From a virus (Duplodnaviria > Heunggongvirae > Uroviricota > Caudoviricetes), in IMG/VR virus record IMGVR_UViG_2778261153_000008: a stretch of 25,598 nucleotides of DNA; one strand, written 5' to 3'. Both the position numbers and the translations under genes were made by a program. Each line of letters opens with the position of its first letter. Within the stretch, counting starts at the first letter, position 1. Below are positions 1-14,271 of the stretch, one piece after another. The notes beneath the pieces are model-generated. The model had not been told where the DNA came from, ran no database searches, and was given only the letters and a program-made list of their open reading frames with translations.

Positions 1-1053
1 TTACGGGGTAATGCCAACCGCTGCCGCCACTTTGTCGCCACTTGGCAGCGTTGCCAGAGGATTGAAACGGAGCGCCGTTTCCAGATGATCCGGTGCCAGA
101 TGTGCGTAACGCATAGTCATTTTTATATCGTGGTGTCCGAGAATTTTTTGTAAGGCCAGAATGTTTCCACCCGACATCATGAAGTGCGCCGCAAACGTAT
201 GGCGCAGAACGTGTGTGAGTTGACCGCGAGGGAGCACGATAGACGTTTTTTCCATCACGGATAAAAATTGAAAATAGCAGTCTGTGAAGAAATTGAACCC
301 ATCAAGCGCCATGATCTCTTCGTAAAGCTCTTTACTGATAGGGATGCTTCTGTTTTTCTTCCCCTTCGTTCTGACAAAGGTAATTCGGTATTTGGTCACC
401 TGTGAGCGAGTAAGATTTACGGCTTCACGCCAGCGTGCGCCTGTGCTTAAGCATATCTTAACTACCAGTGCCAGAATTGGGTCCTGACGTTTGCAATCAG
501 CCAGCAATTCAACAATCTGCTCATGGGTAAGCCATGCCATCTCTTTTTCTGCGATGGTGAATTTTCGCATGTTCTCCAGTGGGTTCGGATACGACCATTC
601 GCCCAGACGGGATAGTTCGCTAAAAACACTACTTAGATAGCTTTGCTCCAGGTTAATGGTGACCGGGCTTGCTCCTTTCTTCCATTTCTCGCTGAAGTAG
701 ATCTCGCCTGTCAGGCGTTTATCTCGATAGTGGGCAAACATTTTAGAGGTGAGATCGGTTGCAAGAGGATTGCCCAGAGCGTCAACCATCAACAGCAATT
801 TGTCATAGACATGCTGCCCAGCTGTCAGAGATTTACCATGTAGTTTGAACCATAGTTCAACCACGTCTTTCAGTGTTCGACGATCCACTGATTCACCCAG
901 CCAGGGCTTTGCTTCGGTTTCTTCCATCGTGTGACGCTCAAAAGCCAGAGCTTCGCCTTTGGTGGCGAATTGTTTACGCACACGACGTCCACTACGTCCG
1001 GCGGGGTAACATTCGCAAAGCCATTTTCCTGTGGTGAGTTTTCGTACTGCCAT
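1..1053 (-). CDS. int: Phage integrase, tyrosine recombinase (P2/186 family)
   Basis: 350-aa ORF; C-terminal tyrosine-recombinase signature (LRHTFAAHF ... GHHDIKMTMRYAHL); sits at prophage end beside the immunity region; stop codon at window positions 1-3 so the gene appears complete. Confidence 0.9.
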   Translation of the reverse strand: MAVRKLTTGKWLCECYPAGRSGRRVRKQFATKGEALAFERHTMEETEAKPWLGESVDRRTLKDVVELWFKLHGKSLTAGQHVYDKLLLMVDALGNPLATDLTSKMFAHYRDKRLTGEIYFSEKWKKGASPVTINLEQSYLSSVFSELSRLGEWSYPNPLENMRKFTIAEKEMAWLTHEQIVELLADCKRQDPILALVVKICLSTGARWREAVNLTRSQVTKYRITFVRTKGKKNRSIPISKELYEEIMALDGFNFFTDCYFQFLSVMEKTSIVLPRGQLTHVLRHTFAAHFMMSGGNILALQKILGHHDIKMTMRYAHLAPDHLETALRFNPLATLPSGDKVAAAVGITP

Positions 1054-1136: not shown

Positions 1137-2813
1137 CTAAGCAACATGCAGTTCATCGTTGGCGGAAGTTGCTGCTTTGCGCTCTTGCTCAATCGCCAGT
1201 GACTCTCTATATTCTTTCGCTTCCGCAAACATTGTCCATTGTGCGTTGATGTTCATATCTTCAATAACAGACTTAATTTCTTTAATATTTACGTTGAAAA
1301 ACTCTTTTCGTGAGTTAATTTTATTGACCTGTTTTTCGTTGAAGACTTTATGCAGATGATTTTCTAATGATGGTGCATCATCACTATAAATCATCGCATG
1401 AACATCGAACGAAAAAGGAACACTAGCATCACCGAGTTCACGAACACGATCAAGTGGTTCAAGGCGGCGTGTCATTCCAATTTTATATACATCTTCGCCA
1501 AATGAGCCAATATTACTAATTATATAAACGTGGCCTGATCTAGTTTGTTGAGCCATAGAAATAGCTCGTTGGTTTTTAGCTTCAGCTTCTTCATATTTTA
1601 ACTGTAGTTCAGCTATTTTTTGCTCTAAAGCTAAGCGTTGTTCTTCATTTGCAAGCATAAGCTCTTTTGTTGCTTTATTTATAGCTTGCTGAATAGCTTT
1701 CTCTTCTTTTTCAGCTTCTTTTATCGCTTTTTCATACTCCCTACGAGCTCTTTCCTCTTCACGAAGTTGTTCTTTAATCCTTCTTTGCTCTTCTTTTTCT
1801 TCGAGCATAATTTCATTAACTGCAACTCCCCATTTTAGCTCGTTGAGTCGAGCTTGAAGATAGATGTCACTTATTTTTGCGGACCTAAAGGCAGAACCAT
1901 TGTAATTTACAAGTTGAAACGCATCTTTTATCTCTTGGGAAAGTTTTCCAAAATTGTTGTGTTTGACTTTTGATAAAATACTGTCAACTCTTCCATTGAA
2001 GGCATCTAAAACAAAGTTGATAGCAGTATTACGCCTGTTTTGTTCGACATAATCACACGAAGCAGCTTTATTAGTTTTTATTAATGATTTTGTTAACTCC
2101 CTGGCTTTTTGTAATTCCTTACCTGCATCTGTAAACTCATAATTTTCTGCCAATTCATCGAGAACGCTACGGTTAGGGATGATCCATTCATCACCATAAC
2201 CTTCAATTTTATTTTTCATTGATTTGGCAACTGCTTCATATTTTTCTGCAAACTCTTTAGCTTCATATGCTGAACCAGCAATCTCTTTTGCTCTTTCTTC
2301 TGCATCGGAAATAATTTTCACTGCATTGTCATTAGCATTTGAGATCAGCTCATTTGCTTTACTATTGGCATTATCAAGACGTTCTTTAGCTTTCAGGCGT
2401 GCATCGCGAGCGTCTTTAGTAATTGCTATAGCTTCGCTATTAGCGTTGCTTATTTTTATCTGAGCTTGATAATTTGCTTCGTTTACTGTCTTAGCAGCCT
2501 TTATTTGGGCTTCTTCTATTTTTTGCCTGGCTATTGAGTCTGCATTTTTTATCTTATTCTCTGCTTCCATCACTGCGCTGTGCAATTCTACGTATTGCCA
2601 TAATGGCGCAGCTCGTCCTTCAAGCTCTGATAGATCTCGTACAGTCTGTGCTAATTCTTCTTGATTTTCTTTCAGTTGGTTGGAAAGGGCTATGTTGTTA
2701 GCTGTCAAGGTATTTATAGCCGCTTTATGTTTTTTGCTTTGCTTAAATAATATTACAGCTAGAATGGGGGCGAGAAATGCTAATAAGAATATAACGATGG
2801 AAAATGAATTCAT
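1137..2813 (-). CDS. Membrane-anchored coiled-coil protein with C-terminal T5orf172/MUG113 (GIY-YIG-like) nuclease domain; DUF4041-like architecture; cargo gene
   Basis: 558 aa. N-terminal hydrophobic helix (FSIVIFLLAFLAPILAVILF), long K/E/A-rich low-complexity middle region predicted coiled coil, C-terminal block GHVYIISNIGSFGEDVYKIGMTRRLEPLDRVRELGDASVPFSF...EFF matching the recalled T5orf172 consensus. Strongly AT-rich versus phage backbone. Start 20 nt downstream of cI stop, SD AAGGA; co-oriented with cI and int. Confidence 0.75.
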   Translation of the reverse strand: MNSFSIVIFLLAFLAPILAVILFKQSKKHKAAINTLTANNIALSNQLKENQEELAQTVRDLSELEGRAAPLWQYVELHSAVMEAENKIKNADSIARQKIEEAQIKAAKTVNEANYQAQIKISNANSEAIAITKDARDARLKAKERLDNANSKANELISNANDNAVKIISDAEERAKEIAGSAYEAKEFAEKYEAVAKSMKNKIEGYGDEWIIPNRSVLDELAENYEFTDAGKELQKARELTKSLIKTNKAASCDYVEQNRRNTAINFVLDAFNGRVDSILSKVKHNNFGKLSQEIKDAFQLVNYNGSAFRSAKISDIYLQARLNELKWGVAVNEIMLEEKEEQRRIKEQLREEERARREYEKAIKEAEKEEKAIQQAINKATKELMLANEEQRLALEQKIAELQLKYEEAEAKNQRAISMAQQTRSGHVYIISNIGSFGEDVYKIGMTRRLEPLDRVRELGDASVPFSFDVHAMIYSDDAPSLENHLHKVFNEKQVNKINSRKEFFNVNIKEIKSVIEDMNINAQWTMFAEAKEYRESLAIEQERKAATSANDELHVA

Positions 2814-2833: not shown

Positions 2834-3430
2834 TTAATTTGAAACTATTGTACTTCTTATACAAGCAACTACTTCAATATCAGAAAATGCACATTCAAAG
2901 CTATTCTCTGTACTTGTAATTTTAATCATACCTTTTGGAAGCTTTGTGATTTTTCGAATGGAATAGGTTCCGTCGATGTTGATTAACCAGTGCCCATCAA
3001 GTACTTCAGAAAATTTTTGATCACAAATGTATGTGACGAGCCCATCCTGAATAACAATTGGTGATGAAAGATTTGCAGGAAGAAATGATGAATCGAAGAC
3101 ATATGAACCATCTTCAATCATTTTGCCTGCGGTAAGGCGAAACTTGGCAAGCTCTTCTGTAGCTGCTGTCAGCGAGCTTTGCTTAAGGCCTTGCCCGGTG
3201 GTTAACCATTTCAGTGAGGTTCCTGTTTCAAGAGCACATTGGATTATCCAGTCTGCAGGAAACGTATCCCGCAAATACCTGTTCGCCAGAGTGCTTTTTG
3301 ATACTTCCAAGTGATCAGCTAAAGCCTGTCGTGTCGTAAAGCCATAAGCTTCGACTAATCGCTCAATCGCAGCCTTACCACCTTTATTGGGATTTATTTT
3401 GATCTCATTTGGGTACTTTGATGTTGACAT
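2834..3430 (-). CDS. cI: Immunity repressor, phage 186 CI-like
   Basis: 198-aa ORF divergent from apl/cII; N-terminal HTH-like region (AYGFTTRQALADHLEVSKSTLANRYLR); size and position match 186 CI (about 190 aa). Start codon overlaps the -35 of the rightward promoter. Confidence 0.8.
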   Translation of the reverse strand: MSTSKYPNEIKINPNKGGKAAIERLVEAYGFTTRQALADHLEVSKSTLANRYLRDTFPADWIIQCALETGTSLKWLTTGQGLKQSSLTAATEELAKFRLTAGKMIEDGSYVFDSSFLPANLSSPIVIQDGLVTYICDQKFSEVLDGHWLINIDGTYSIRKITKLPKGMIKITSTENSFECAFSDIEVVACIRSTIVSN

Positions 3431-5103: not shown

Positions 5104-5330
5104 TGGCTGATGCAATGGATCTCGTACAGCAGCGCGTTGAAGAAGAACGCCAGCGCCATATCCGTGCTGCCCGTGCCAAAACACCGGGCGTGTCACGCGT
5201 ACTTTGCATTGAATGTGAAGCGCCAATTCCGCCAGCACGACGCCGCGCCATTCCGGGAGTGCAGCTTTGCATTACCTGTCAGGAAATCGCAGAACTGAAA
5301 GGCAAACATTACAACGGAGGTGCTGTATGA
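5103..5330 (+). CDS. TraR/DksA-family C4 zinc-finger protein
   Basis: 75 aa with CxxC-(17)-CxxC pattern (CIECEAP...CITCQE), typical of small phage TraR/DksA-like zinc fingers; translationally coupled to flanking genes. Confidence 0.7.
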   Translation: MADAMDLVQQRVEEERQRHIRAARAKTPGVSRVLCIECEAPIPPARRRAIPGVQLCITCQEIAELKGKHYNGGAV

Positions 5331-6175
5331 GCACCATCTTGAAATGGGCGGGAAATAAAACGGCCATTATGGCAGAACTGAAAAAATACCTTCCTGCTGG
5401 CCCGCGACTGGTTGAACCTTTCGCGGGTTCCTGTGCAGTGATGATGGAGACGGATTACCCCAGCTATCTTGTTGCGGATATTAATCCTGATTTAATCAAC
5501 CTCTATAAAAAGGTTGCCGCTGATTGTGAATCGTTTATATCTCGCGCCAGAGTTTTATTTGAGAACGCAAACAGGGAGATGGCTTATTACAACATAAGGC
5601 AGGAGTTTAATTACTCAACTGAAATTACTGATTTCATGAAAGCAGTATATTTCCTGTATCTCAATCGTCACGGTTACCGTGGTTTATGTCGCTATAACAA
5701 GAGCGGGCATTTCAACATTCCCTACGGTAATTATAAAAATCCGTATTTCCCTGAAAAAGAAATTCGTGCATTTGCAGAAAAAGCCCAGCGGGCAACATTT
5801 ATCTGCGCCAGCTTCGATGAAACGCTGGCAATGTTGCACGCGGGGGATGTTGTGTATTGCGATCCGCCTTATGACGGTACGTTTTCCGGTTATCACACTG
5901 ACGGCTTCACTGAAGATGACCAGTATCACCTGGCATCCGTTCTTGAACATCGGTCATCAGAAGGACATCCGGTCATTGTTTCTAACAGTGACACATCCCT
6001 GATCCGCTCGCTGTATCGCAATTTCACTCACCACTACATCAAGGCAAAACGCAGCATTGGCGTGTCAGCTGGCGAGAGTAAATCTGCAACAGAAATCATT
6101 GCCACCAAATCAGCTGGGTGGTTTGGTGTCGATTTTGCCAGCGGCTCTGACCGTACCGTTGAGGTACGCGCATGA
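5327..6175 (+). CDS. dam: DNA adenine methyltransferase (Dam-like, N6-adenine MTase)
   Basis: ATG 5327 (overlaps preceding stop as ATGA); N-terminal AdoMet motif (KWAGNK ... EPFAGSCAV) and catalytic DPPY motif ([11 protein letters not shown]). Confidence 0.85.
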
Positions 6176-7182
6176 ATGCTATCGATCCGCGTTGCTTTGC
6201 CTCAGGCACCATTAACGTCATCACTACTTCTGGTGGCAAAGATAGTCTCGCTCAATGGCTAAGAGCCATTGAAAACGATGTTCCGCATATTTCTGTATTT
6301 GCCGATACGGGTCATGAACATCCACAGACAATAGAATATCTGGATTATCTGGAATCAAAGCTGGGCAAGATTATTCGCGTCAAAGCGGATTTCACACGCC
6401 AGATAGAAGGGAAACGTAAATTCATTGCGGAAAAGTGGACCATTTCTCTCGTTGAGGAATGTGGTATGTCGACAGATGAGGCTGAGGAACGTATTTACCG
6501 GGCACTGGAAATCCTTAAACCAACCGGCGTTCCGTTTCTTGATTTGTGCATGTGGAAAGGTCGCTTCCCTTCAACAAAAGCTCGTTTCTGCACTTTTGAA
6601 CTGAAACATGAACCAATACGTACACAGGTAATCGATCCAGCTCTGGATGAATACGATGAGGTAATCAGTTGGCAAGGAGTCCGGGGGCAGGAATCACCGG
6701 AACGTGCATTGTTGCCTGAGTGGGAGGACGATGCAGACAATACTCTGGGGCTGCATGTTTATCGTCCGATCCTTAATTGGCTGCATGAGGATGTGTTTGC
6801 TATTGCCAAACGTCATGGCATTAAGCCTAACCCCCTTTATATGCAGGGATGCAGTCGTGTCGGTTGTATGCCATGCATTCATGCTCGCAAGTCAGAACTT
6901 GGAGAGATTTTCCAACGCTGGCCAGAAGAAATCCGCCGAGTGGCTGAGTGGGAAAGACTGGTTGCGGAATGTTCAAGACGTGGCAATTCAACGTTCTTTC
7001 CATCCACGCATGATCCGCGCCGTGCTGAAAAACGGATCGAAGTCATAACTGTTGATGCTTATGGCATTGAAACTTATCGGGACTGGGCCTTAACGACTCG
7101 GGGCGGTATGCAGTTTGACCTGCTGGCAGGCATGAATGATAAAGCGGTGTGCAGCAGTGTATATGCAGGAGTCTGTGAGTGA
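6172..7182 (+). CDS. PP-loop ATP pyrophosphatase, phosphoadenosine-phosphosulfate (PAPS) reductase-like family protein
   Basis: 336 aa; PP-loop motif SGGKDS near N-terminus; C-terminal cysteine cluster (CSRVGCMPC); start overlaps dam stop (ATGA), stop overlaps gene A start. Confidence 0.65.
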
Positions 7183-9620
7183 CAGAGATCAGCACAGGCC
7201 GTCTTGCCGATCCATTTGTCAGTGTAACTTCCGGTAGCATTGAGAATTCTGCCGGGGGTTATTCGTGGAATTTACCTAAGAAAGCCATTAACCCTTATCT
7301 GGACCCGGCGGAAGTTGCGCCGGTTTCTGCGCTTTCAAACCTGATCACTCTGTACGCTACCGATAACGAGCAGGAACAACTGCGCCGCGAGGCACTGAGT
7401 GATCAGGTCTGGGAGCGTTATTTCTTTAATGAATCCCGTGATCCTGTCCAGCGCGAAATGGAGCAGGATAAGCTCATTAGCCGGGCAAAGTTGGCGCATG
7501 AGCAGCAGCGTTTTAACCCGGACATGGTCATTCTGGCAGACGTCAGCGCCCAGCCCTCCCATATCAGCAAGCCGCTGATGCAACGTATTGAATACTTCAG
7601 CAGCCTGGGCAGGCCAAAGGCTTATTCCCGCTATTTACGTGAGACGATTAAGCCATGTCTGGAACGACTGGAGCATGTACGCGACAGCCAGCTATCTGCA
7701 TCTTTTCGTTTTATGGCAAGCCATGTAGGGCTGGACGACCTGCTGATTCTGCCTGAAATGAGTCAGGATCAGGTGAAACGCCTGTCTACCCTTGTCGCTG
7801 CGCATATGAGCATGTGCCTTGATGCAGCTTGTGGTGATTTGTATGCCACCGATGACGTTAAGCCAGAAGAAATCCGCAAGACATGGGAAAAGGTGGCAGC
7901 GGAAACCCTGCGTCTGGATGTCATCCCGCCTGCGTTTGAGCAACTCCGCCGGAAAAGAAACCGCCGTAAACCCGTGCCCTATGAACTCATTCCGGGTTCG
8001 CTGGCGCGTATGTTGTGCGCCGACTGGTGGTACCGGAAATTATGGAAGATGCGTTGCGAATGGCGGGAAGAGCAGTTGCGTGCTGTCTGCCTGGTCAGCA
8101 AAAAAGCATCTCCCTATGTCAGCTATGAAGCCGTGATGCATAAACGTGAGCAGCGCCGTAAGTCGCTGGAGTTTTTTCGTTCTCATGAACTGGTGAACGA
8201 AGACGGCGACACGCTGGACATGGAGGATGTGGTAAACGCCAGCAGCAGCAACCCTGCGCATCGCCGCAATGAGATGATGGCCTGTGTTAAAGGCCTGGAG
8301 CTTATCGCGGAAATGCGTGGTGACTGCGCCGTTTTCTACACCATTACCTGTCCGTCACGTTTCCATTCCACGCTCAATAACGGCAGACCAAACCCAACCT
8401 GGACAAATGCGACGGTAAGACAAAGCAGCGATTATCTGGTCGGCATGTTTGCTGCATTTCGTAAGGCGATGCACAAAGCCGGGTTGCGCTGGTATGGCGT
8501 GCGGGTGGCTGAGCCGCATCATGACGGTACGGTTCACTGGCACCTGTTGTGTTTCATGCGCAAAAAAGACCGCCGTGCCATTACTGCATTGTTGCGTAAG
8601 TTTGCCATCCGTGAAGACCGCGAGGAACTGGGTAATAACACTGGTCCACGCTTTAAATCTGAGCTGATAAACCCGCGCAAAGGAACACCGACAAGCTACA
8701 TCGCGAAATACATTAGTAAGAACATTGACGGGCGTGGTCTGGCTGGCGAGATCAGCAAGGAAACGGGTAAATCCCTGCGTGATAACGCTGAATACGTTAA
8801 TGCCTGGGCGTCTCTGCATCGTGTTCAGCAATTCCGCTTCTTTGGTATTCCGGGGCGTCAGGCTTACCGTGAACTGCGATTGCTGGCTGGTCAGGCGGCA
8901 AGGCAACAGGGCGACAAAAAAGCAGGTGCGCCGGTACTGGATAACCCGCGCCTTGATGCCATCCTGGCTGCTGCTGATGCTGGTTGTTTTGCCACTTACA
9001 TCATGAAGCAGGGTGGTGTACTGGTTCCCCGCAAATATCACCTCATCAGAACTGCTTATGAAATTAACGAAGAGCCGACCGCCTATGGCGATCACGGCAT
9101 TCGTATTTATGGCATCTGGTCACCCATTGCAGAGGGCAAGATCTGCACTCATGCAGTGAAGTGGAAAATGGTTCGTAAAGCCGTTGACGTTCAGGAGGCG
9201 GTAGCCGACCAGGGCGCTTGCGCCCCTTGGACTCGTGGCAATAACTGTCCCCTTGCTGAAAATTTGAACCAACAGGAGAAAGATAAATCAGCTGATGGGG
9301 ACCCCAGAACGGACATTACCCGCATGGATGACAAGGTGTTGCACGATTACCTGCACAGTATGAACAAAAAGGAGCGCCGGGAACTGGCTGCAAGGTTACG
9401 TCTGGTGAAACCGAAACGGCGTAGAGACTACAAACAGCGAATTACAGACCATCAACGACAGCATCTCGTCTATGAACTGAAATCCAGAGGATTTGATGGC
9501 AGCGAGAAAGAGGTCGATTTACTCCTTCGCGGCGGCAGTATTCCGTCAGGAGCAGGCCTGCGTATCTTCTATCGGAACCAGCGTTTGCAGGAAGATGATA
9601 AGTGGCGGAACCTGTATTAA
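7179..9620 (+). CDS. A: Replication initiation protein (P2 gpA-like rolling-circle endonuclease)
   Basis: 813 aa, GTG start with SD AGGAG (7167-7171); HUH-type motif ([12 protein letters not shown]) and downstream tyrosine motif ([10 protein letters not shown]); large early gene in the position of P2 gene A. Confidence 0.85.
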
Positions 9621-9713
9621 TTACGCTGGTTAACAATTCGTGCTCTTAATAATACCAGGTATATCAGGCTGATAAGCGTAAAAAAAACGTTTTACATCAG
9701 TAAGATTATTATA

Positions 9714-9733
9714 TACTGTAAATATAAACAGTG
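9714..9733. promoter_or_regulatory. LexA operator (SOS box) at promoter of downstream operon
   Basis: TACTGTAAATATAAACAGTG matches the CTGT-N8-ACAG LexA consensus (TACTGTATATATATACAGTA) at 17 of 20 positions; lies 40 bp upstream of ATG 9774 in an AT-rich intergenic region; a weaker half-site (ACAG at 9743-9746) follows. Confidence 0.75.
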
Positions 9734-9773
9734 GTTATGTATACAGTATTGCTTTGGTGTCATAGGAGGAAAG

Positions 9774-9962
9774 ATGCAGGACTATTTTTTGGAGTCTTTG
9801 AAGCTCCAGCGCATTGATTTTTTTCTTAAGCTTGTAGCGGCTAGTGAGTGTAGTGATGAAGAGAAGGGGCTGGCTTTGCAGTGGGTTTCTGAACTGACTG
9901 ATGAACTCATGGCAAAAATCAGAAGCCACGAATACAACCGCTCAATGGATGTCATCAGCTGA
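9774..9962 (+). CDS. Small SOS-operon protein, hypothetical (possibly N-terminal part of a Tum-like antirepressor)
   Basis: 62-aa ORF with strong SD (AGGAGG) 5 nt upstream; first gene after the LexA box; overlaps the upstream open frame of the DinI-like gene. Confidence 0.5.
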   Translation: MQDYFLESLKLQRIDFFLKLVAASECSDEEKGLALQWVSELTDELMAKIRSHEYNRSMDVIS

Positions 9963-9972
9963 GGTGACTTTT

Positions 9973-10206
9973 ATGCGCATTGAAATAATGATCGATAAAG
10001 AGCAGAAGATTAGCCAGTCTACCCTGGACGCCCTTGAATCCGAGCTTTACCGCAATCTGCGCCCCCTGTATCCCAAAACGGTAATCCGTATCCGTAAAGG
10101 TAGCTCTAACGGTGTGGAACTGACCGGACTGCAACTGGACGAAGAAAGAAAACAAGTGATGAAAATTATGCAGAAGGTGTGGGAAGACGACAGCTGGCTG
10201 CATTGA
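9973..10206 (+). CDS. DinI-like protein (Tum C-terminal-like, SOS-inducible)
   Basis: 77-aa product MRIEIMIDKEQ...KVWEDDSWLH resembles E. coli DinI in length and in N-terminal MRIE and C-terminal W-x-DD-W motifs; SD GAGGTG 6 nt upstream; downstream of LexA box. Confidence 0.7.
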   Translation: MRIEIMIDKEQKISQSTLDALESELYRNLRPLYPKTVIRIRKGSSNGVELTGLQLDEERKQVMKIMQKVWEDDSWLH

Positions 10207-10260
10207 TTTTGTCAATAGACGCTTGTTTTTACTAATCAAAAAGGGTTACATATGAGTGAG

Positions 10261-10293
10261 AGGCGATGTCAATCAGATATCGCCTTGTTTTTT
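10261..10293 (+). terminator. Intrinsic terminator/attenuator-like hairpin
   Basis: A-GGCGAT (10261-10267) pairs with ATCGCC-T (10279-10285), 11-nt loop, followed by TTGTTTTTTG; lies after the DinI-like gene and 27 nt before the lipoprotein start. Confidence 0.45.
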
Positions 10294-10319
10294 GTCAAGA
10301 AAAGAATAATAGGCTAAAA

Positions 10320-10997
10320 ATGAAAATTAATAATGTAGCGTTACCAATATCTCTTGCTGTAATCCTAACTGGTTGCGTGCCACATGCTTCTAACCGAAAT
10401 ATCACTGCTATTGAAGTGGTGAAGCCTGCTATTGGGCAAAGTGCTACCGCCTACATGGGCGATCCCATTATCACATCTGCTACTGGATTTAAAACGGACG
10501 TACTAGAACTTGGTGCGGCTAATGGTGCATTGTCTTCTATCGCTGCTGGTACATATTGCAGTGAGGGGAATGGAATTTACCGCAATTATCATAACCCTCA
10601 AGCTGTTGCGTTAAAAAATCTCTATGGGCAAATCGGTAACTATGTTGATTATGTTAGTTACGATGCTGCAAAAAATGAGATATCACCGCCAAATGGTACT
10701 TCTTATACTGCATCAGAAATTTCTATCAAACGTGTTCCTGATGGGCTGTGTCGAGTTAGTAACTCATTGGTTAAGACTATCGAATACAATGGAAATGCAG
10801 GCGGTGTAATGAAGTTCACCTATCGTGAATTTGCAAACGATATGGCTCGTGCAGCATTTACAACAGATTTTTCTGTAGATTCTAAGGGAAGTGACGTTAT
10901 CGCTTACAAAGGTGCCAAGTTCAAAGTGAACAAGGCTGATAACTCGTCTATTTCTTATACAATTATTTCTGGCTTTGACAAGGCTGTCACGTTCTAG
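10320..10997 (+). CDS. Lipoprotein, function unknown (cargo/moron)
   Basis: Product begins MKINNVALPISLAVILTGC: basic N-terminus, hydrophobic core, lipobox LTGC. Remainder Gly/Ser/Asn/Tyr-rich beta-type sequence. AT-rich relative to backbone. The ORF-track start at 10266 would add 18 non-signal residues and overlaps the hairpin. Confidence 0.7.
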   Translation: MKINNVALPISLAVILTGCVPHASNRNITAIEVVKPAIGQSATAYMGDPIITSATGFKTDVLELGAANGALSSIAAGTYCSEGNGIYRNYHNPQAVALKNLYGQIGNYVDYVSYDAAKNEISPPNGTSYTASEISIKRVPDGLCRVSNSLVKTIEYNGNAGGVMKFTYREFANDMARAAFTTDFSVDSKGSDVIAYKGAKFKVNKADNSSISYTIISGFDKAVTF

Positions 10998-11100
10998 GTT
11001 TCACGCTTACTTAGTATGTTACGATTTTGCACATTCTGCATAAACGCGCATGTCTATGCTGCATGAGATCGCATGATCGTTTGAGGATCTTTTGTGTTAA

Positions 11101-11126
11101 GGCCCGCCAGTTCTGGCGGGCTTTTG
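11101..11126 (+). terminator. Rho-independent terminator
   Basis: GCCCGCCA-gttc-TGGCGGGC stem-loop followed by TTTT; 104 bp downstream of lipoprotein stop, immediately left of putative cos. Confidence 0.7.
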
Positions 11127-11170
11127 CGTAGATCATGCAGGTGCATGAAAACCACTACATAAAGCGGGCA

Positions 11171-11189
11171 GGCGTGGCGGGGATACGAG
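11171..11189. other. Putative cohesive end site (cos) of the P2/186-like genome
   Basis: GGCGTGGCGGGGATACGAG; the first 13 nt match my recollection of the 19-nt cohesive ends of 186 (GGCGTGGCGGGGAAAGCAT) and P2 (GGCGAGGCGGGGAAAGCAC). Lies between the genome-right-end genes and the portal/terminase genes as expected. Confidence 0.5.
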
Positions 11190-11483
11190 CGCGCATTTAT
11201 ATAGAGTTAGAGAAATTTCTCTATGCTGCATGTCATAGTCATATTTGCTGATGCAAATGAAGGTTACAACTAAGGAGAACAACATAATTACCGTAAATAT
11301 AATTTACAATCGTTATTGTTTTGTAGGGTTATGAGATTGACGCATTATATTGAGATCAAGTTCAAAATTATATGTCAATTCATCAATTTTGACGTTTCTT
11401 TCGTTAAATAAATCGCATATCCTATCGTTATGATAAATCGGTCATGATATTTTTTAATTTAACGGAAGTAATCGGAGATTCTA

Positions 11484-13202
11484 ATGCATCCTGTTTTAAA
11501 CAGATATATTCAAGATTTAGCGAGTACACTTGATATAGCAGAAGAGCAAGATAAGTTATTTGAATATTTTTGCAATTTTGTTGTTACATCCAAAAATTAT
11601 CTTGGCCGATTTAATCCTGTCGACATTACGACTCAAGAAGATGATGCATCAATTGATGGCTTGGCGGTTCTAATAGATAGTGAGATCATACTTACCCAAG
11701 AGGACGCTATTGCTGCTTTCGAAAGTCACAAATCGTCATTGCCTGTAGAACTTTTGGTTATTCAAGCTAAATCAGGAGAAACCTTCCGGAAAGATAAAAT
11801 AGCTAATTTTAATTTGGGGTTGCAGGATTTATTCAGTTTGGACCCGAAACTACCTAATGGAAAGTACAATAAAGAAATTATAAAAATATTAAGTGTTATC
11901 ATCGATAATTTGAGAAAAGTCAAGAATAAACTTCCTGATATAAAGGTTTATTTTTGCACAAGCGGTGTCTATTCAAAAGAAAGAGAAATAGAAGCTTCTT
12001 TTAAGATTATTGAAGAAACTTGTAAAGGGGCAGATCTGTTTGGTGAAGTTGAGGTTAGCCCATTAGGTCGTAGCGAACTAATGAAATTGTGGCGCTCAAT
12101 AACCGAAAAAAATGAGGCTACTTTAGAGTTCATAAATTTCATGGGCATCAATGAAATGCCTGGAATTCCTCAAGCATATATTACAACAATAAAAGCTAAG
12201 GAGTTTATTGAAAAAGTTGCGATGGATGAAGATCGCAAAATTCGAGAGGAGGTATTTGATGAAAATGTACGAGCATTTTTAGGTGAAGACAATCCTGTTA
12301 ATAAGGATATTACTAAAACCTTGCAATCTGAAAAATCGAATCAATTCGCTGTGCTAAACAATGGCGTGACCATCATTGCTCCTGAGGTAACCCTCACCCC
12401 AAGTAAAAAAACTATACACATAGCTAATTATCAGATCATTAACGGTTGCCAAACTACCAATACACTATTCAATAACTTTGGAATATTAACGGATGCGACT
12501 GAACTCGTTGTTAAGTTTATACAATCTAGCGAGGTTGATGTCGCAATTGACATTGTAACTGCTACCAATAATCAATCCAAAGTGGAGAGTTCTAGCTTTT
12601 ATGCGTTGAGAGAAAAGTCTAGGATGATACATAAATTTTTTGAAATACAACGGGATGTTGAAGGCAGGGAACACCTTTATTTTGAAAGAAGAGAAGGTGA
12701 GTATCGTGGTAAATCTATCAAAACTACAAAAATATATGACATTGTTGAATTGGCAAGGTGTTTCTTATCTGTATTCAAACAGAGGCCACACAATGCCGCT
12801 ATGTATGTGAAAAAAGTATTAAATGAAAGTAAGGATATATGTTATTTAGATACTGATAACGAATATGCATATTACACAGCAGCTTATATTTGTTATAAAT
12901 ACAGCACGTTGATTAATGGTCGTAAAGCTAATGCTAAGAAATATAATAAGCTACGTTGGCATATTGCTATGCTTTATCCTTGGGTTGTGAGCAAAAGTAT
13001 GGATGTTCCTGCGCCCAATTCAGGAAAGATAACTCCTTTTTGTAATAATATCATGAAAACATTGACAACTGATGAATACGTGGAGAATTTCAAAGAATGT
13101 CAAAAAATAATTGATAAACTTCCATTCCCTACAGATGACCAGATCAAACGAGGAAAATACACCAGCGATCTGAGAACGATGGCAGCAGAACATTTTAAAT
13201 AA
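11484..13202 (+). CDS. Hypothetical 572-aa protein; candidate single-gene anti-phage defence/abortive-infection protein (family unverified, possibly AIPR-like)
   Basis: Long uninterrupted ORF with SD GGAG 6 nt before ATG; very AT-rich compared with flanking packaging genes; own AT-rich upstream region; followed by strong hairpin terminator. No Walker A motif; conserved-looking block ANYQIINGCQTTNT; located between cos and portal gene. Confidence 0.6.
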   Translation: MHPVLNRYIQDLASTLDIAEEQDKLFEYFCNFVVTSKNYLGRFNPVDITTQEDDASIDGLAVLIDSEIILTQEDAIAAFESHKSSLPVELLVIQAKSGETFRKDKIANFNLGLQDLFSLDPKLPNGKYNKEIIKILSVIIDNLRKVKNKLPDIKVYFCTSGVYSKEREIEASFKIIEETCKGADLFGEVEVSPLGRSELMKLWRSITEKNEATLEFINFMGINEMPGIPQAYITTIKAKEFIEKVAMDEDRKIREEVFDENVRAFLGEDNPVNKDITKTLQSEKSNQFAVLNNGVTIIAPEVTLTPSKKTIHIANYQIINGCQTTNTLFNNFGILTDATELVVKFIQSSEVDVAIDIVTATNNQSKVESSSFYALREKSRMIHKFFEIQRDVEGREHLYFERREGEYRGKSIKTTKIYDIVELARCFLSVFKQRPHNAAMYVKKVLNESKDICYLDTDNEYAYYTAAYICYKYSTLINGRKANAKKYNKLRWHIAMLYPWVVSKSMDVPAPNSGKITPFCNNIMKTLTTDEYVENFKECQKIIDKLPFPTDDQIKRGKYTSDLRTMAAEHFK

Positions 13203-13210
13203 TATATACA

Positions 13211-13231
13211 GCCTCTCAAGGTTTGAGAGGC
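13211..13231. terminator. Bidirectional rho-independent terminator between convergent genes
   Basis: GCCTCTCAA-ggt-TTGAGAGGC perfect 9-bp stem, T/A-rich flanks on both sides (ATTGTTATTT on plus; TGTATATATT on minus); lies between the 572-aa gene stop and the Q stop. Confidence 0.8.
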
Positions 13232-13239
13232 ATTGTTAT

Positions 13240-14271
13240 TTAATCTAATATGTACTCGCTAAATTTTATTACTGATTCTCCTACAAATTCATTTAATCCT
13301 TTCACTCTTTCTTTAAGTGGGATGAGTTCGTTACGTACAAATACTTTACTGGCCTTCTCAATATCACCAAAACCGCCAACATTTTGCGGGATGATACCCA
13401 TGAGTTGTGGCGGCACGCGGTGCGCAGCCATCATGTCGTCACGGCTCACGTTTTTGATATTCAGAAACTCATCCTTCGCTGCGACTTCTGACAACGGGAT
13501 AATCTGAAGCCCGTCCTTTTTGCCGTTCGGCGAGTACATAAACAGGTTACGGAAGTTGCCTGGTCCTTTGGCGCTTTTCATTGCGTTGCGGAGGTTGTTT
13601 ACATCCTCCTGGTTCTGTGCGGCATCGGTCATGTACATGATGAAGCCTGCATGACTACCGTTAATGTAATACTTGCGGCGGAACAGCGTGGCGGATTCGT
13701 TGAGCAGGGCTGACGGAATGGCAGAAAGATAACCGGGCAGGCCGTAGATCTCCTGGTTGATGTCCGGTTCCATCAGATGAAAGATGCTGCCTTTCGTGAA
13801 CTGATACGGCTGGGTTGTCATACCGTATTGCACAAACCAGTAGGTATCTAGGTCTAACCCGCGTCGGGTGTATTTTGCCAGCGCAGGCTCAAGGGCGATA
13901 ACTTCACCGAATCGGTTCGTGCGTTTCTCCAGGTAGGCGTTACCAAATACCAGATAGTCCTGCACAAAACGCGAAAAAGCCTGCTGGCTGAGCAGCGGGT
14001 GAGGGATGTAGGTACTGGTCAGAATATTGCATTTCACCGCAATCGGTGAGCTGTGATGCACGGCGGCGCGAAAGGTGCGCGCCAGCCCGTCAAAACTCAC
14101 TGGCGGCTCATACCATCGATCTGTCTGTACGCATTCCACATAGTCCAGCAGTTCACGGCGGTCCAGAACAGGAACGGGATCGCCGAAGCTGAATGCTTCG
14201 GCTGAAGTCTGGCTTTTATGCTGGATCTGATTCATCGCAGCTACGCGGTTTTTTTTACTCTTTCCCATCAA
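13240..14271 (-). CDS. Q: Portal protein (P2 gpQ-like)
   Basis: 343 aa (P2 Q is about 344 aa); leftward gene immediately preceding the large terminase subunit, as in P2; 4-nt overlap with P. Confidence 0.85.
   Translation of the reverse strand: MMGKSKKNRVAAMNQIQHKSQTSAEAFSFGDPVPVLDRRELLDYVECVQTDRWYEPPVSFDGLARTFRAAVHHSSPIAVKCNILTSTYIPHPLLSQQAFSRFVQDYLVFGNAYLEKRTNRFGEVIALEPALAKYTRRGLDLDTYWFVQYGMTTQPYQFTKGSIFHLMEPDINQEIYGLPGYLSAIPSALLNESATLFRRKYYINGSHAGFIMYMTDAAQNQEDVNNLRNAMKSAKGPGNFRNLFMYSPNGKKDGLQIIPLSEVAAKDEFLNIKNVSRDDMMAAHRVPPQLMGIIPQNVGGFGDIEKASKVFVRNELIPLKERVKGLNEFVGESVIKFSEYILD

Follow-up and report, generated by a model that had tools for sequence, protein, structure and literature searches.

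The locus and its operon

The window analysed here, the whole 25,598-nt stretch of IMG/VR record IMGVR_UViG_2778261153_000008, is a prophage of the family Peduoviridae and is of the 186/Fels-2 type, not of the P2 type. On its plus strand, between the SOS genes and the cos site, lies a gene (10320-10997) that was identified by an alignment of homologs and a match to phrog_1353, and that encodes a 225-residue protein with the sequence features of a lipoprotein. This gene, its leader and its place at the end of a phage SOS operon are the subject of this report. The DNA from 9600 to 11194 is 98% identical in Klebsiella phage 4LV2017, in many other Klebsiella prophages and in Salmonella Fels-2.

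The operon begins with a p95-like SOS promoter (9691-9733, plus strand), which has a -35 element TTTACA (9691-9696), a 17-nt spacer and a -10 element TACTGT (9714-9719). A LexA box, TACTGTAAATATAAACAGTG, overlaps this -10 element, and its core, CTGT-N8-ACAG at 9716-9731, is a perfect match. Phage 186 is annotated with a p95 built in the same way, its -10 TACTGT lying within the LexA site. The promoter is followed on the same strand by a 62-residue open reading frame (ORF; 9774-9962; phrog_698, 5.9e-38), the counterpart of Fels-2 STM2728, which is the upstream half of a split tum and a TumA-like, putative antirepressor, and then by a gene for a 77-residue DinI-like, TumB-like protein (9973-10206; Pfam DinI, 6.6e-23) that aligns to the C-terminal half (positions 71-148) of the Tum-length profile phrog_189. 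With a LexA operator over the promoter of tum (antirepressor/DinI), downstream of gene A, the region has the layout of a 186-type SOS operon.

The DinI-like gene is the last one conserved in all relatives before a variable slot. Among Escherichia coli relatives conservation stops at its stop codon (10206) and restarts at about 11048, megablast alignments restarting at about query position 1455. The flanks of the lipoprotein gene are present in 1281 E. coli genomes, and 50 of these have the gene itself; other relatives have nothing in the slot, an HNH endonuclease gene, or a minus-strand ORF. In the window the cassette consists of a leader (10207-10319, plus strand; GC fraction 0.33), the gene itself (0.41, as against 0.53 in gpA) and an untranslated 3' end (10998-11047, plus strand) that, by alignment, is missing from relatives without the gene. 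Beyond it comes a 147-bp block (11048-11194) with the same sequence in the window, in Fels-2 and in three E. coli prophages whose cargo differs. The cohesive-end sequence of cos, GGCGTGGCGGGGATACGAG, lies within this block (11171-11189), where 15 of 19 positions match the annotated P2 cosL/cosR and the flanks are similar; this places the lipoprotein gene at the right end of the virion chromosome, in the P2 tin/old position. Its presence and absence between close relatives, together with a deviant base composition, are traits of a moron, and support its description as accessory cargo at the tin/old-equivalent position. An AT-rich gene between the replication/SOS genes and cos is what had been proposed for this locus from the sequence alone; the word moron, used in that original prediction, is apt for the accessory nature of the gene and not for autonomy, as the window lineage appears to have no promoter of its own where sister lineages have one.

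Also within this essentially invariant block is a GC-rich hairpin, GCCCGCCA-GTTC-TGGCGGGC, followed by TTTT (11103-11126, plus strand; free energy, dG, -16.1 kcal/mol). The hairpin was not listed by the consensus terminator scan and its role is inferred: by analogy with t95b in 186, it probably ends the tum/lipoprotein transcript ahead of cos.

In two empty-slot E. coli prophages (L015, 2108-2200; L095, 3340-3420), the roughly 65 nt past the DinI stop (…GGTTGAACAACGAG…GCGAGGCGTTAGC…) are homologous to the sequence that follows orf97 in phage 186, which makes the empty form resemble a 186-type operon minus its distal gene.

A terminator within the leader

Homology with other lipoprotein-bearing phages starts at about 10221 (GCTTGTTTT), and the leader accompanies the gene in three different upstream settings. 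It carries an intrinsic terminator (10260-10296, plus strand) in which an 11-bp stem (10260-10270 paired with 10276-10286) encloses the 5-nt loop AATCA, with a dG of -16.1 kcal/mol; GTTTTTTGT follows the stem, the T-tract being GTTTTTTGTC. From the T-tract to the ATG at 10320 there are 26 nt, one fewer than originally reported. Terminator-like sites number 6 in the region, against 2.6 +/- 1.4 expected. Over seven leader variants the pairing of the helix was kept in 98.7% of cells and the T-tract was kept as well; the helix has two compensatory double changes (C-G to U-A and G-C to U-A) and several changes to G-U, the sample for compensation being small (13 of 500 shuffles attain the observed score). 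The hairpin is present in four leader lineages. Judged on sequence and conservation, the hairpin at 10260-10286 and its T-tract are a real intrinsic terminator.

A sigma-70 scan of the leader found no usable promoter, its sole match overlapping the ATG, and on inspection by eye no sigma-E-type promoter was seen in the leader. A promoter past the hairpin and a leaderless mRNA were both rejected, since that one sigma-70 match lies on the ATG and the Shine-Dalgarno sequence is conserved: the window has AGG at 10311-10313 (plus strand), 6 nt before ATG 10320, and all homolog leaders examined have AGG or GGG 6-9 nt before the start.

The closest characterised parallel is phage 186. In its record (NC_001317; the operon of Brumby et al., 1996), p95 is annotated as providing 'SOS-dependent transcription of SOS operon', with a LexA site and tum, and tum is followed by 't95a; partial termination of p95 transcript', 27 nt, orf97, t95b and the right genome end with cos. 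The annotation of orf97 states that 'expression from plasmid blocks 186 infection' (NC_001317). The window shares with 186 a LexA site over a -10 TACTGT, a tum/DinI coding sequence, a hairpin and U-tract 26-27 nt before a distal gene of about 230 codons, an envelope-targeted product of that gene (predicted in the window), a second terminator (putative in the window) and then cos. The t95a hairpin has a dG of -18.5 kcal/mol, compared with -16.1 for the hairpin of the window. The two operons also differ. In the window phage tum is split, as it is in Fels-2 and PSP3, where the antirepressor half is likewise upstream (PMC3121763); Orf97 has hydrophobic N-terminal transmembrane segments, whereas the window protein is a predicted lipoprotein with a cleavable signal; and the terminator sequences are not homologous. 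As Orf97 is not homologous to the lipoprotein either, the distal gene of a known operon type has undergone non-orthologous replacement.

Published expression data are available for Fels-2, which has the same gene as STM2726 (WP_000700647; PHROG 1353), with 99-100% protein identity, the same neighbours, the same leader and essentially no difference in sequence. In Salmonella Typhimurium TA100 (Fels-2+) treated with the mutagen MX, STM2726, STM2727 and STM2728 were all raised at 30 min on microarrays (p <= 0.01; PMC2225428). STM2727 rose 14.8-fold and the least significant of the three genes 2.6-fold, and of the 54 multi-gene operons that responded in Table 3 of that study, STM2726-2728 was the sole one from Fels-2 (PMC2225428). 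If the gene with the 2.6-fold value is STM2726, the drop would fit a leaky terminator. The hairpin and T-tract stand at a position equivalent to t95a, and in Fels-2 the gene past them is co-induced with STM2727 and STM2728; from this we infer that read-through would operate in the window phage itself. It had been predicted that the space past the hairpin was too short for a promoter, and that expression must come from read-through of the LexA-regulated operon or from a promoter upstream of the hairpin. For the window lineage the promoter scan agrees with this, and the partial terminator of 186, 27 nt before its gene, and the joint rise of STM2726 with STM2727 and STM2728 after mutagen treatment point the same way.

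The predicted lipoprotein

The ORF as listed in the window runs from 10266 to 10997 (plus strand) and has 243 codons. Homologs support ATG 10320 as the start, and the Prokaryotic Genome Annotation Pipeline (PGAP) entry WP_000700647 uses this same ATG. The 18-residue N-terminal extension of the longer ORF starts within the hairpin and is not conserved in the alignment of homologs. The 243-residue product, from the ATG inside the terminator hairpin, is nonetheless annotated in the Fels-2 record for STM2726 and in many other GenBank records. By coincidence, the unrelated orf97 of 186 is also annotated as 732 nt long.

The N-terminus, MKINNVALPISLAVILTGC, has a lysine at position 2, a hydrophobic core and a lipobox, L16-T17-G18-C19, with residues 1-18 as the predicted signal peptide. 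This layout, M-K-INNVALPISLAVI-L-T-G-C19, agrees with the lipobox rule [LVI][ASTVI][GAS]C and has the positive n-region and hydrophobic h-region of such signals. G18 and C19 are invariant among 22 homologs with identities down to 36%, and in the wider family a lipobox was recognised in 131 of the 157 full-length members. These observations support a lipoprotein that would be a substrate of Lgt and LspA. Aspartate is found at +2 in none of the 131 lipobox-bearing relatives, and the valine at +2 in the window protein suggests transfer to the outer membrane via Lol. The mature part has 207 residues, 32% of which are glycine, serine, asparagine or tyrosine, and the AF2 model (pLDDT 80) predicts an all-beta mature domain, with 17 strands. 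Its two cysteines, Cys80 and Cys144, are both invariant in the alignment of 22 homologs and probably form one disulfide; exactly two mature cysteines occur in 83 of the 131 lipobox-bearing relatives. The original prediction of a 226-residue lipoprotein was one residue too long and is supported as to the class of protein, and both the signal sequence that it gave and its Gly/Ser/Asn/Tyr-rich mature domain of unknown function were borne out.

The protein matches PHROG 1353 over its full length (E = 3.1e-105; residues 1-223 against profile positions 1-230 of 230), a family annotated as of unknown function, and is 99% identical to Fels-2 STM2726. The family is large: after clustering at 50% identity it has 2434 representatives at E <= 1e-3, of which 1256 reach E <= 1e-10, and it includes members from Pseudoalteromonas, Shewanella, Methylotuvimicrobium and many Enterobacterales, all of them named hypothetical or 'lipoprotein'. 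The exact sequence of the window protein is on at least 1000 contigs. Homologs at 79-88% identity occupy the same slot in other P2-like phages, and others are found in SSU5-like phage-plasmids (IncFIB, about 95-108 kb), between genes for a DnaB-like helicase and a ParA-like AAA ATPase; in the tail-gene region of Acinetobacter and Moraxella prophages; on plasmids with MobA or RepL; and in islands with recombinases, OLD or AbiC-like genes. Over 16 loci no recurrent neighbour and no tandem paralogs were found.

Searches for a known relative outside this family gave little. The protein had no match in Pfam (E <= 0.1) or NCBIfam and matched no family of PADLOC-DB 2.0 at E <= 1. Pfam searches with 69 diverse family members returned stray matches only, with the TraT and Bor-Iss families not among them; a profile of the 69 found nothing significant among Protein Data Bank (PDB) sequences, the best hits being TrwH (E = 0.31) and Acb4 (E = 0.37); and Foldseek against the PDB and BFVD gave nothing at E <= 0.001. 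We found no paper that gives STM2726 or WP_000700647 a function. An arrangement of 'hypothetical + hypothetical + AIPR + DinI' that includes WP_000700647 already appears in Table S5A of Rousset et al. (2022), where no function is given for it, and the lipoprotein sequence is not found in the part of Table S5B of the same study that was available to us. Vassallo et al. (2022) mention a lipoprotein defence system; a link to the window protein was considered and not established, because no PADLOC model matches it.

Two peculiarities of the family may be recorded here. In 90%-identity clustering the exact protein is filed under a branched-chain amino acid transaminase (IlvE) representative, evidently a clustering artefact, and it was therefore absent from the first homolog search. 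On a Vibrio parahaemolyticus plasmid (NZ_CP010886; locus L085, 4447-5678), a 28%-identical member overlaps the last base of a small gene annotated as 'porin family protein', and this single pairing suggests translational coupling of that member with an outer-membrane beta-barrel.

Interpretation

Taken together, these features suggest an SOS-induced envelope protein that is expressed by read-through, a reading to which we assign a probability of roughly 0.6; that it acts against incoming elements is proposed less securely. The stretch from 9691 to 11126 would be an SOS operon in which a p95-like promoter under LexA repression is followed by the two halves of tum, an intrinsic terminator, the distal gene and a second hairpin, with cos beyond it. 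The distal gene would have no promoter of its own in the window lineage, and polymerases starting at the SOS promoter would read through the leaky terminator. Because transcription would be by read-through from the SOS promoter, the protein is expected to be scarce in the quiet lysogen and to rise upon LexA cleavage, when prophage induction starts. The product would be processed by Sec, Lgt and LspA, moved to the outer membrane by Lol, and would present an all-beta domain to the periplasm. There it might block other phages or mobile elements during induction, as the non-homologous Orf97 does from a plasmid. We favour such an exclusion role because of the predicted envelope location, carriage by many kinds of mobile element, placement in an anti-phage hotspot, SOS timing and the ability of the 186 gene to block infection.

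This functional step is the weakest of the reading. The proposal of an envelope block to incoming phages or mobile DNA at induction is a tentative one, drawn by analogy, and the odds run somewhat against it. Several observations weigh on the other side of the scale, both for function and for expression. The lipoprotein has no similarity to 186 Orf97 (BLASTP E = 3.8), nor to any known exclusion or defence protein in Pfam, NCBIfam or PADLOC. The Fels-2 and 4LV2017 lipoproteins are 99% identical, and the tail fibres (gpH) of these two phages share an N-terminal part and have unrelated receptor-binding C-termini; a protein that is nearly identical (99-100%) in phages with unrelated receptor-binding parts cannot be matched to the receptor of the phage that encodes it. 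Promoters of their own are present in sister lineages and in homologs carried by other elements, and this suggests a role outside SOS too. Lipoprotein processing and localisation were judged by a sequence rule only. The 2.6-fold value of the MX experiment is not ascribed to STM2726 or to STM2728 (PMC2225428), and the MX rise could also reflect a gene-dosage effect of starting prophage replication.

Other explanations can be offered for the leader and its hairpin. One, built on an option of the original prediction, is that the hairpin is a regulated attenuator, with a leader peptide, an antiterminator fold or a ligand tuning termination so that output follows a signal other than SOS. The hairpin is indeed conserved along with the gene, and in the window it is spanned by a 21-codon upstream ORF (10252-10317) with a plausible AAGGG Shine-Dalgarno sequence. 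However, this ORF is not conserved, being interrupted by an early TGA in the near-identical L058 leader and lacking an ATG in L018 and L060; the leader had no Rfam match at E <= 1, a result on which a riboswitch or other known RNA was also rejected; minimum free energy and centroid folds of the leader retain the terminator and contain no competing helix; and the 186 equivalent is annotated as a mere partial terminator. The missing Rfam match and the unconserved upstream ORF argue for a plain, leaky intrinsic terminator, and we regard attenuation as very improbable. A better case, though still an unlikely one, can be made for a classic autonomous moron, in which a constitutive weak or non-canonical promoter in the leader would drive the gene, the hairpin would insulate it from the SOS operon, and the product would be a lysogenic-conversion factor serving, for example, serum resistance or envelope robustness. 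Lambda Bor and TraT are models for such lipoproteins, and a host-benefit role in serum or stress resistance is the main alternative function. The AT-richness of the gene and its pattern of presence and absence agree with this explanation, and an insulating role would suit a terminator that moves together with the gene's 5' end. Moreover, good promoters are present in sister lineages: the one at 79% protein identity has no terminator and carries TTGATG-17-TATGAT about 45 nt before the ATG, and the one at 57% has an extended -10, TGGTATGAT. Homologs on plasmids, phage-plasmids and islands are solitary cargo genes, often opposite in strand to their neighbours. Yet in the window the bases homologous to the sister promoter are degenerate (TTTACT-17-TATGAG), with the -7 T lost and a poor -35, and no usable sigma-70 match is present in the leader; STM2726 is mutagen-responsive together with the tum genes; and the protein resembles neither Bor nor TraT nor any Pfam family.

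Exclusion of incoming elements must also be distinguished from masking of the phage's own receptor, in the manner of T5 Llp on FhuA or of Cor, which would protect progeny from debris and from superinfection by siblings. Llp, Cor of phi80 and N15, Ltp of the Streptococcus thermophilus phage TP-J34 and TraT are, like the predicted window protein, lipid-anchored envelope proteins from mobile elements. Llp is also made as the lytic programme begins, so that both the predicted induction timing and the outer-membrane lipoprotein nature of the window protein recall it, and the 186 gene at the same position blocks infection by 186 itself. In contrast to these likenesses, no sequence or fold similarity to Llp, Cor, Ltp or TraT was detected, and the mature window protein is far larger than Llp or Cor. 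Unlike Llp, it does not co-vary with the receptor-binding protein of its own phage, and homologs reside on elements without tail fibres, namely plasmids and islands. P2-like phages generally use lipopolysaccharide, not a protein receptor. Self-receptor masking was set aside on the tail-fibre comparison between Fels-2 and 4LV2017, and appears improbable, if less so than attenuation. We return to SOS-timed, read-through expression of an envelope protein directed at other elements as the preferred reading, and consider the observation and reasoning from which the analysis started to be sound.

Other features of the window

The P2 locus between gpA and gpQ is a hotspot rich in anti-phage genes (Rousset et al., 2022; Vassallo et al., 2022; PMC9122126; PMC9519451). 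The lipoprotein gene has the same map place beside cos as P2 tin/old, with content that is likewise highly variable among otherwise similar phages; tin and old differ from it in that their products are cytoplasmic, their own promoter lies near cos, they are transcribed towards A and their sequences are unrelated. The window further differs from the P2 hotspot in that cos divides it into two slots, so that variable cargo flanks the cos block on both sides: the lipoprotein gene occupies the A side and runs in the same direction as the SOS operon, and on the Q side is an AIPR/AbiU-like gene. The latter (11484-13202, plus strand; GC fraction 0.35) encodes a 572-residue AIPR-domain protein (Pfam AIPR, 4.6e-40; PADLOC AbiU, 9.3e-107; phrog_1841) and sits between cos and portal Q, a position that is empty in P2. 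This second slot is filled differently in other relatives, where TIR/SEFIR, a retron-type reverse transcriptase or still other genes are found. The AIPR gene and portal Q converge, and between their stop codons lies a perfect 9-bp palindromic hairpin (13211-13231; GCCTCTCAA-GGT-TTGAGAGGC) that was flagged as terminator-like on both strands.

Elsewhere in the window, Pfam matches identify an integrase (1-1053, minus strand), a 186-type CI repressor (2834-3430, minus strand), CII/CP76, a Dam-like methylase and gpA (7179-9620); portal Q (13240-14271) is on the minus strand, as is terminase P. Between the integrase and the CI repressor, a gene at 1137-2813 (minus strand) encodes a 558-residue protein with DUF4041 and a C-terminal T5orf172/MUG113 (GIY-YIG-like) domain, and this spot is likely a third cargo slot. 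Directly 5' of gpA (5267-7182, plus strand) are a Dam-like D12 methyltransferase gene and then a gene for a 336-residue PAPS-reductase-domain protein; at the equivalent place the annotations of Fels-2 and 4LV2017 show the methylase alone.

Implications

The architecture described here is already known from 186, and the gene is already catalogued (STM2726, PHROG 1353, WP_000700647) and uncharacterised. It is among the commonest occupants of its slot in Klebsiella and Salmonella prophages. It is conceivable, if doubtful, that PHROG 1353 and its approximately 2,400 relatives form a new and widespread class of envelope-acting exclusion proteins whose fold has no counterpart among solved structures. 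In 186/Fels-2-type prophages such a protein, placed behind a leaky terminator, would be deployed only upon SOS-triggered induction and would shut the envelope to competitors while the lytic phase leaves the phage vulnerable. Should SOS-timed envelope exclusion prove true, a hotspot whose known systems are mainly cytoplasmic and act by abortive infection would gain a layer that works outside the cytoplasm and is timed to induction. Even without a phenotype, the locus would still be a neat natural case of a gene whose expression is governed by read-through of a terminator, and of the non-orthologous replacement of a distal gene in a conserved phage operon.

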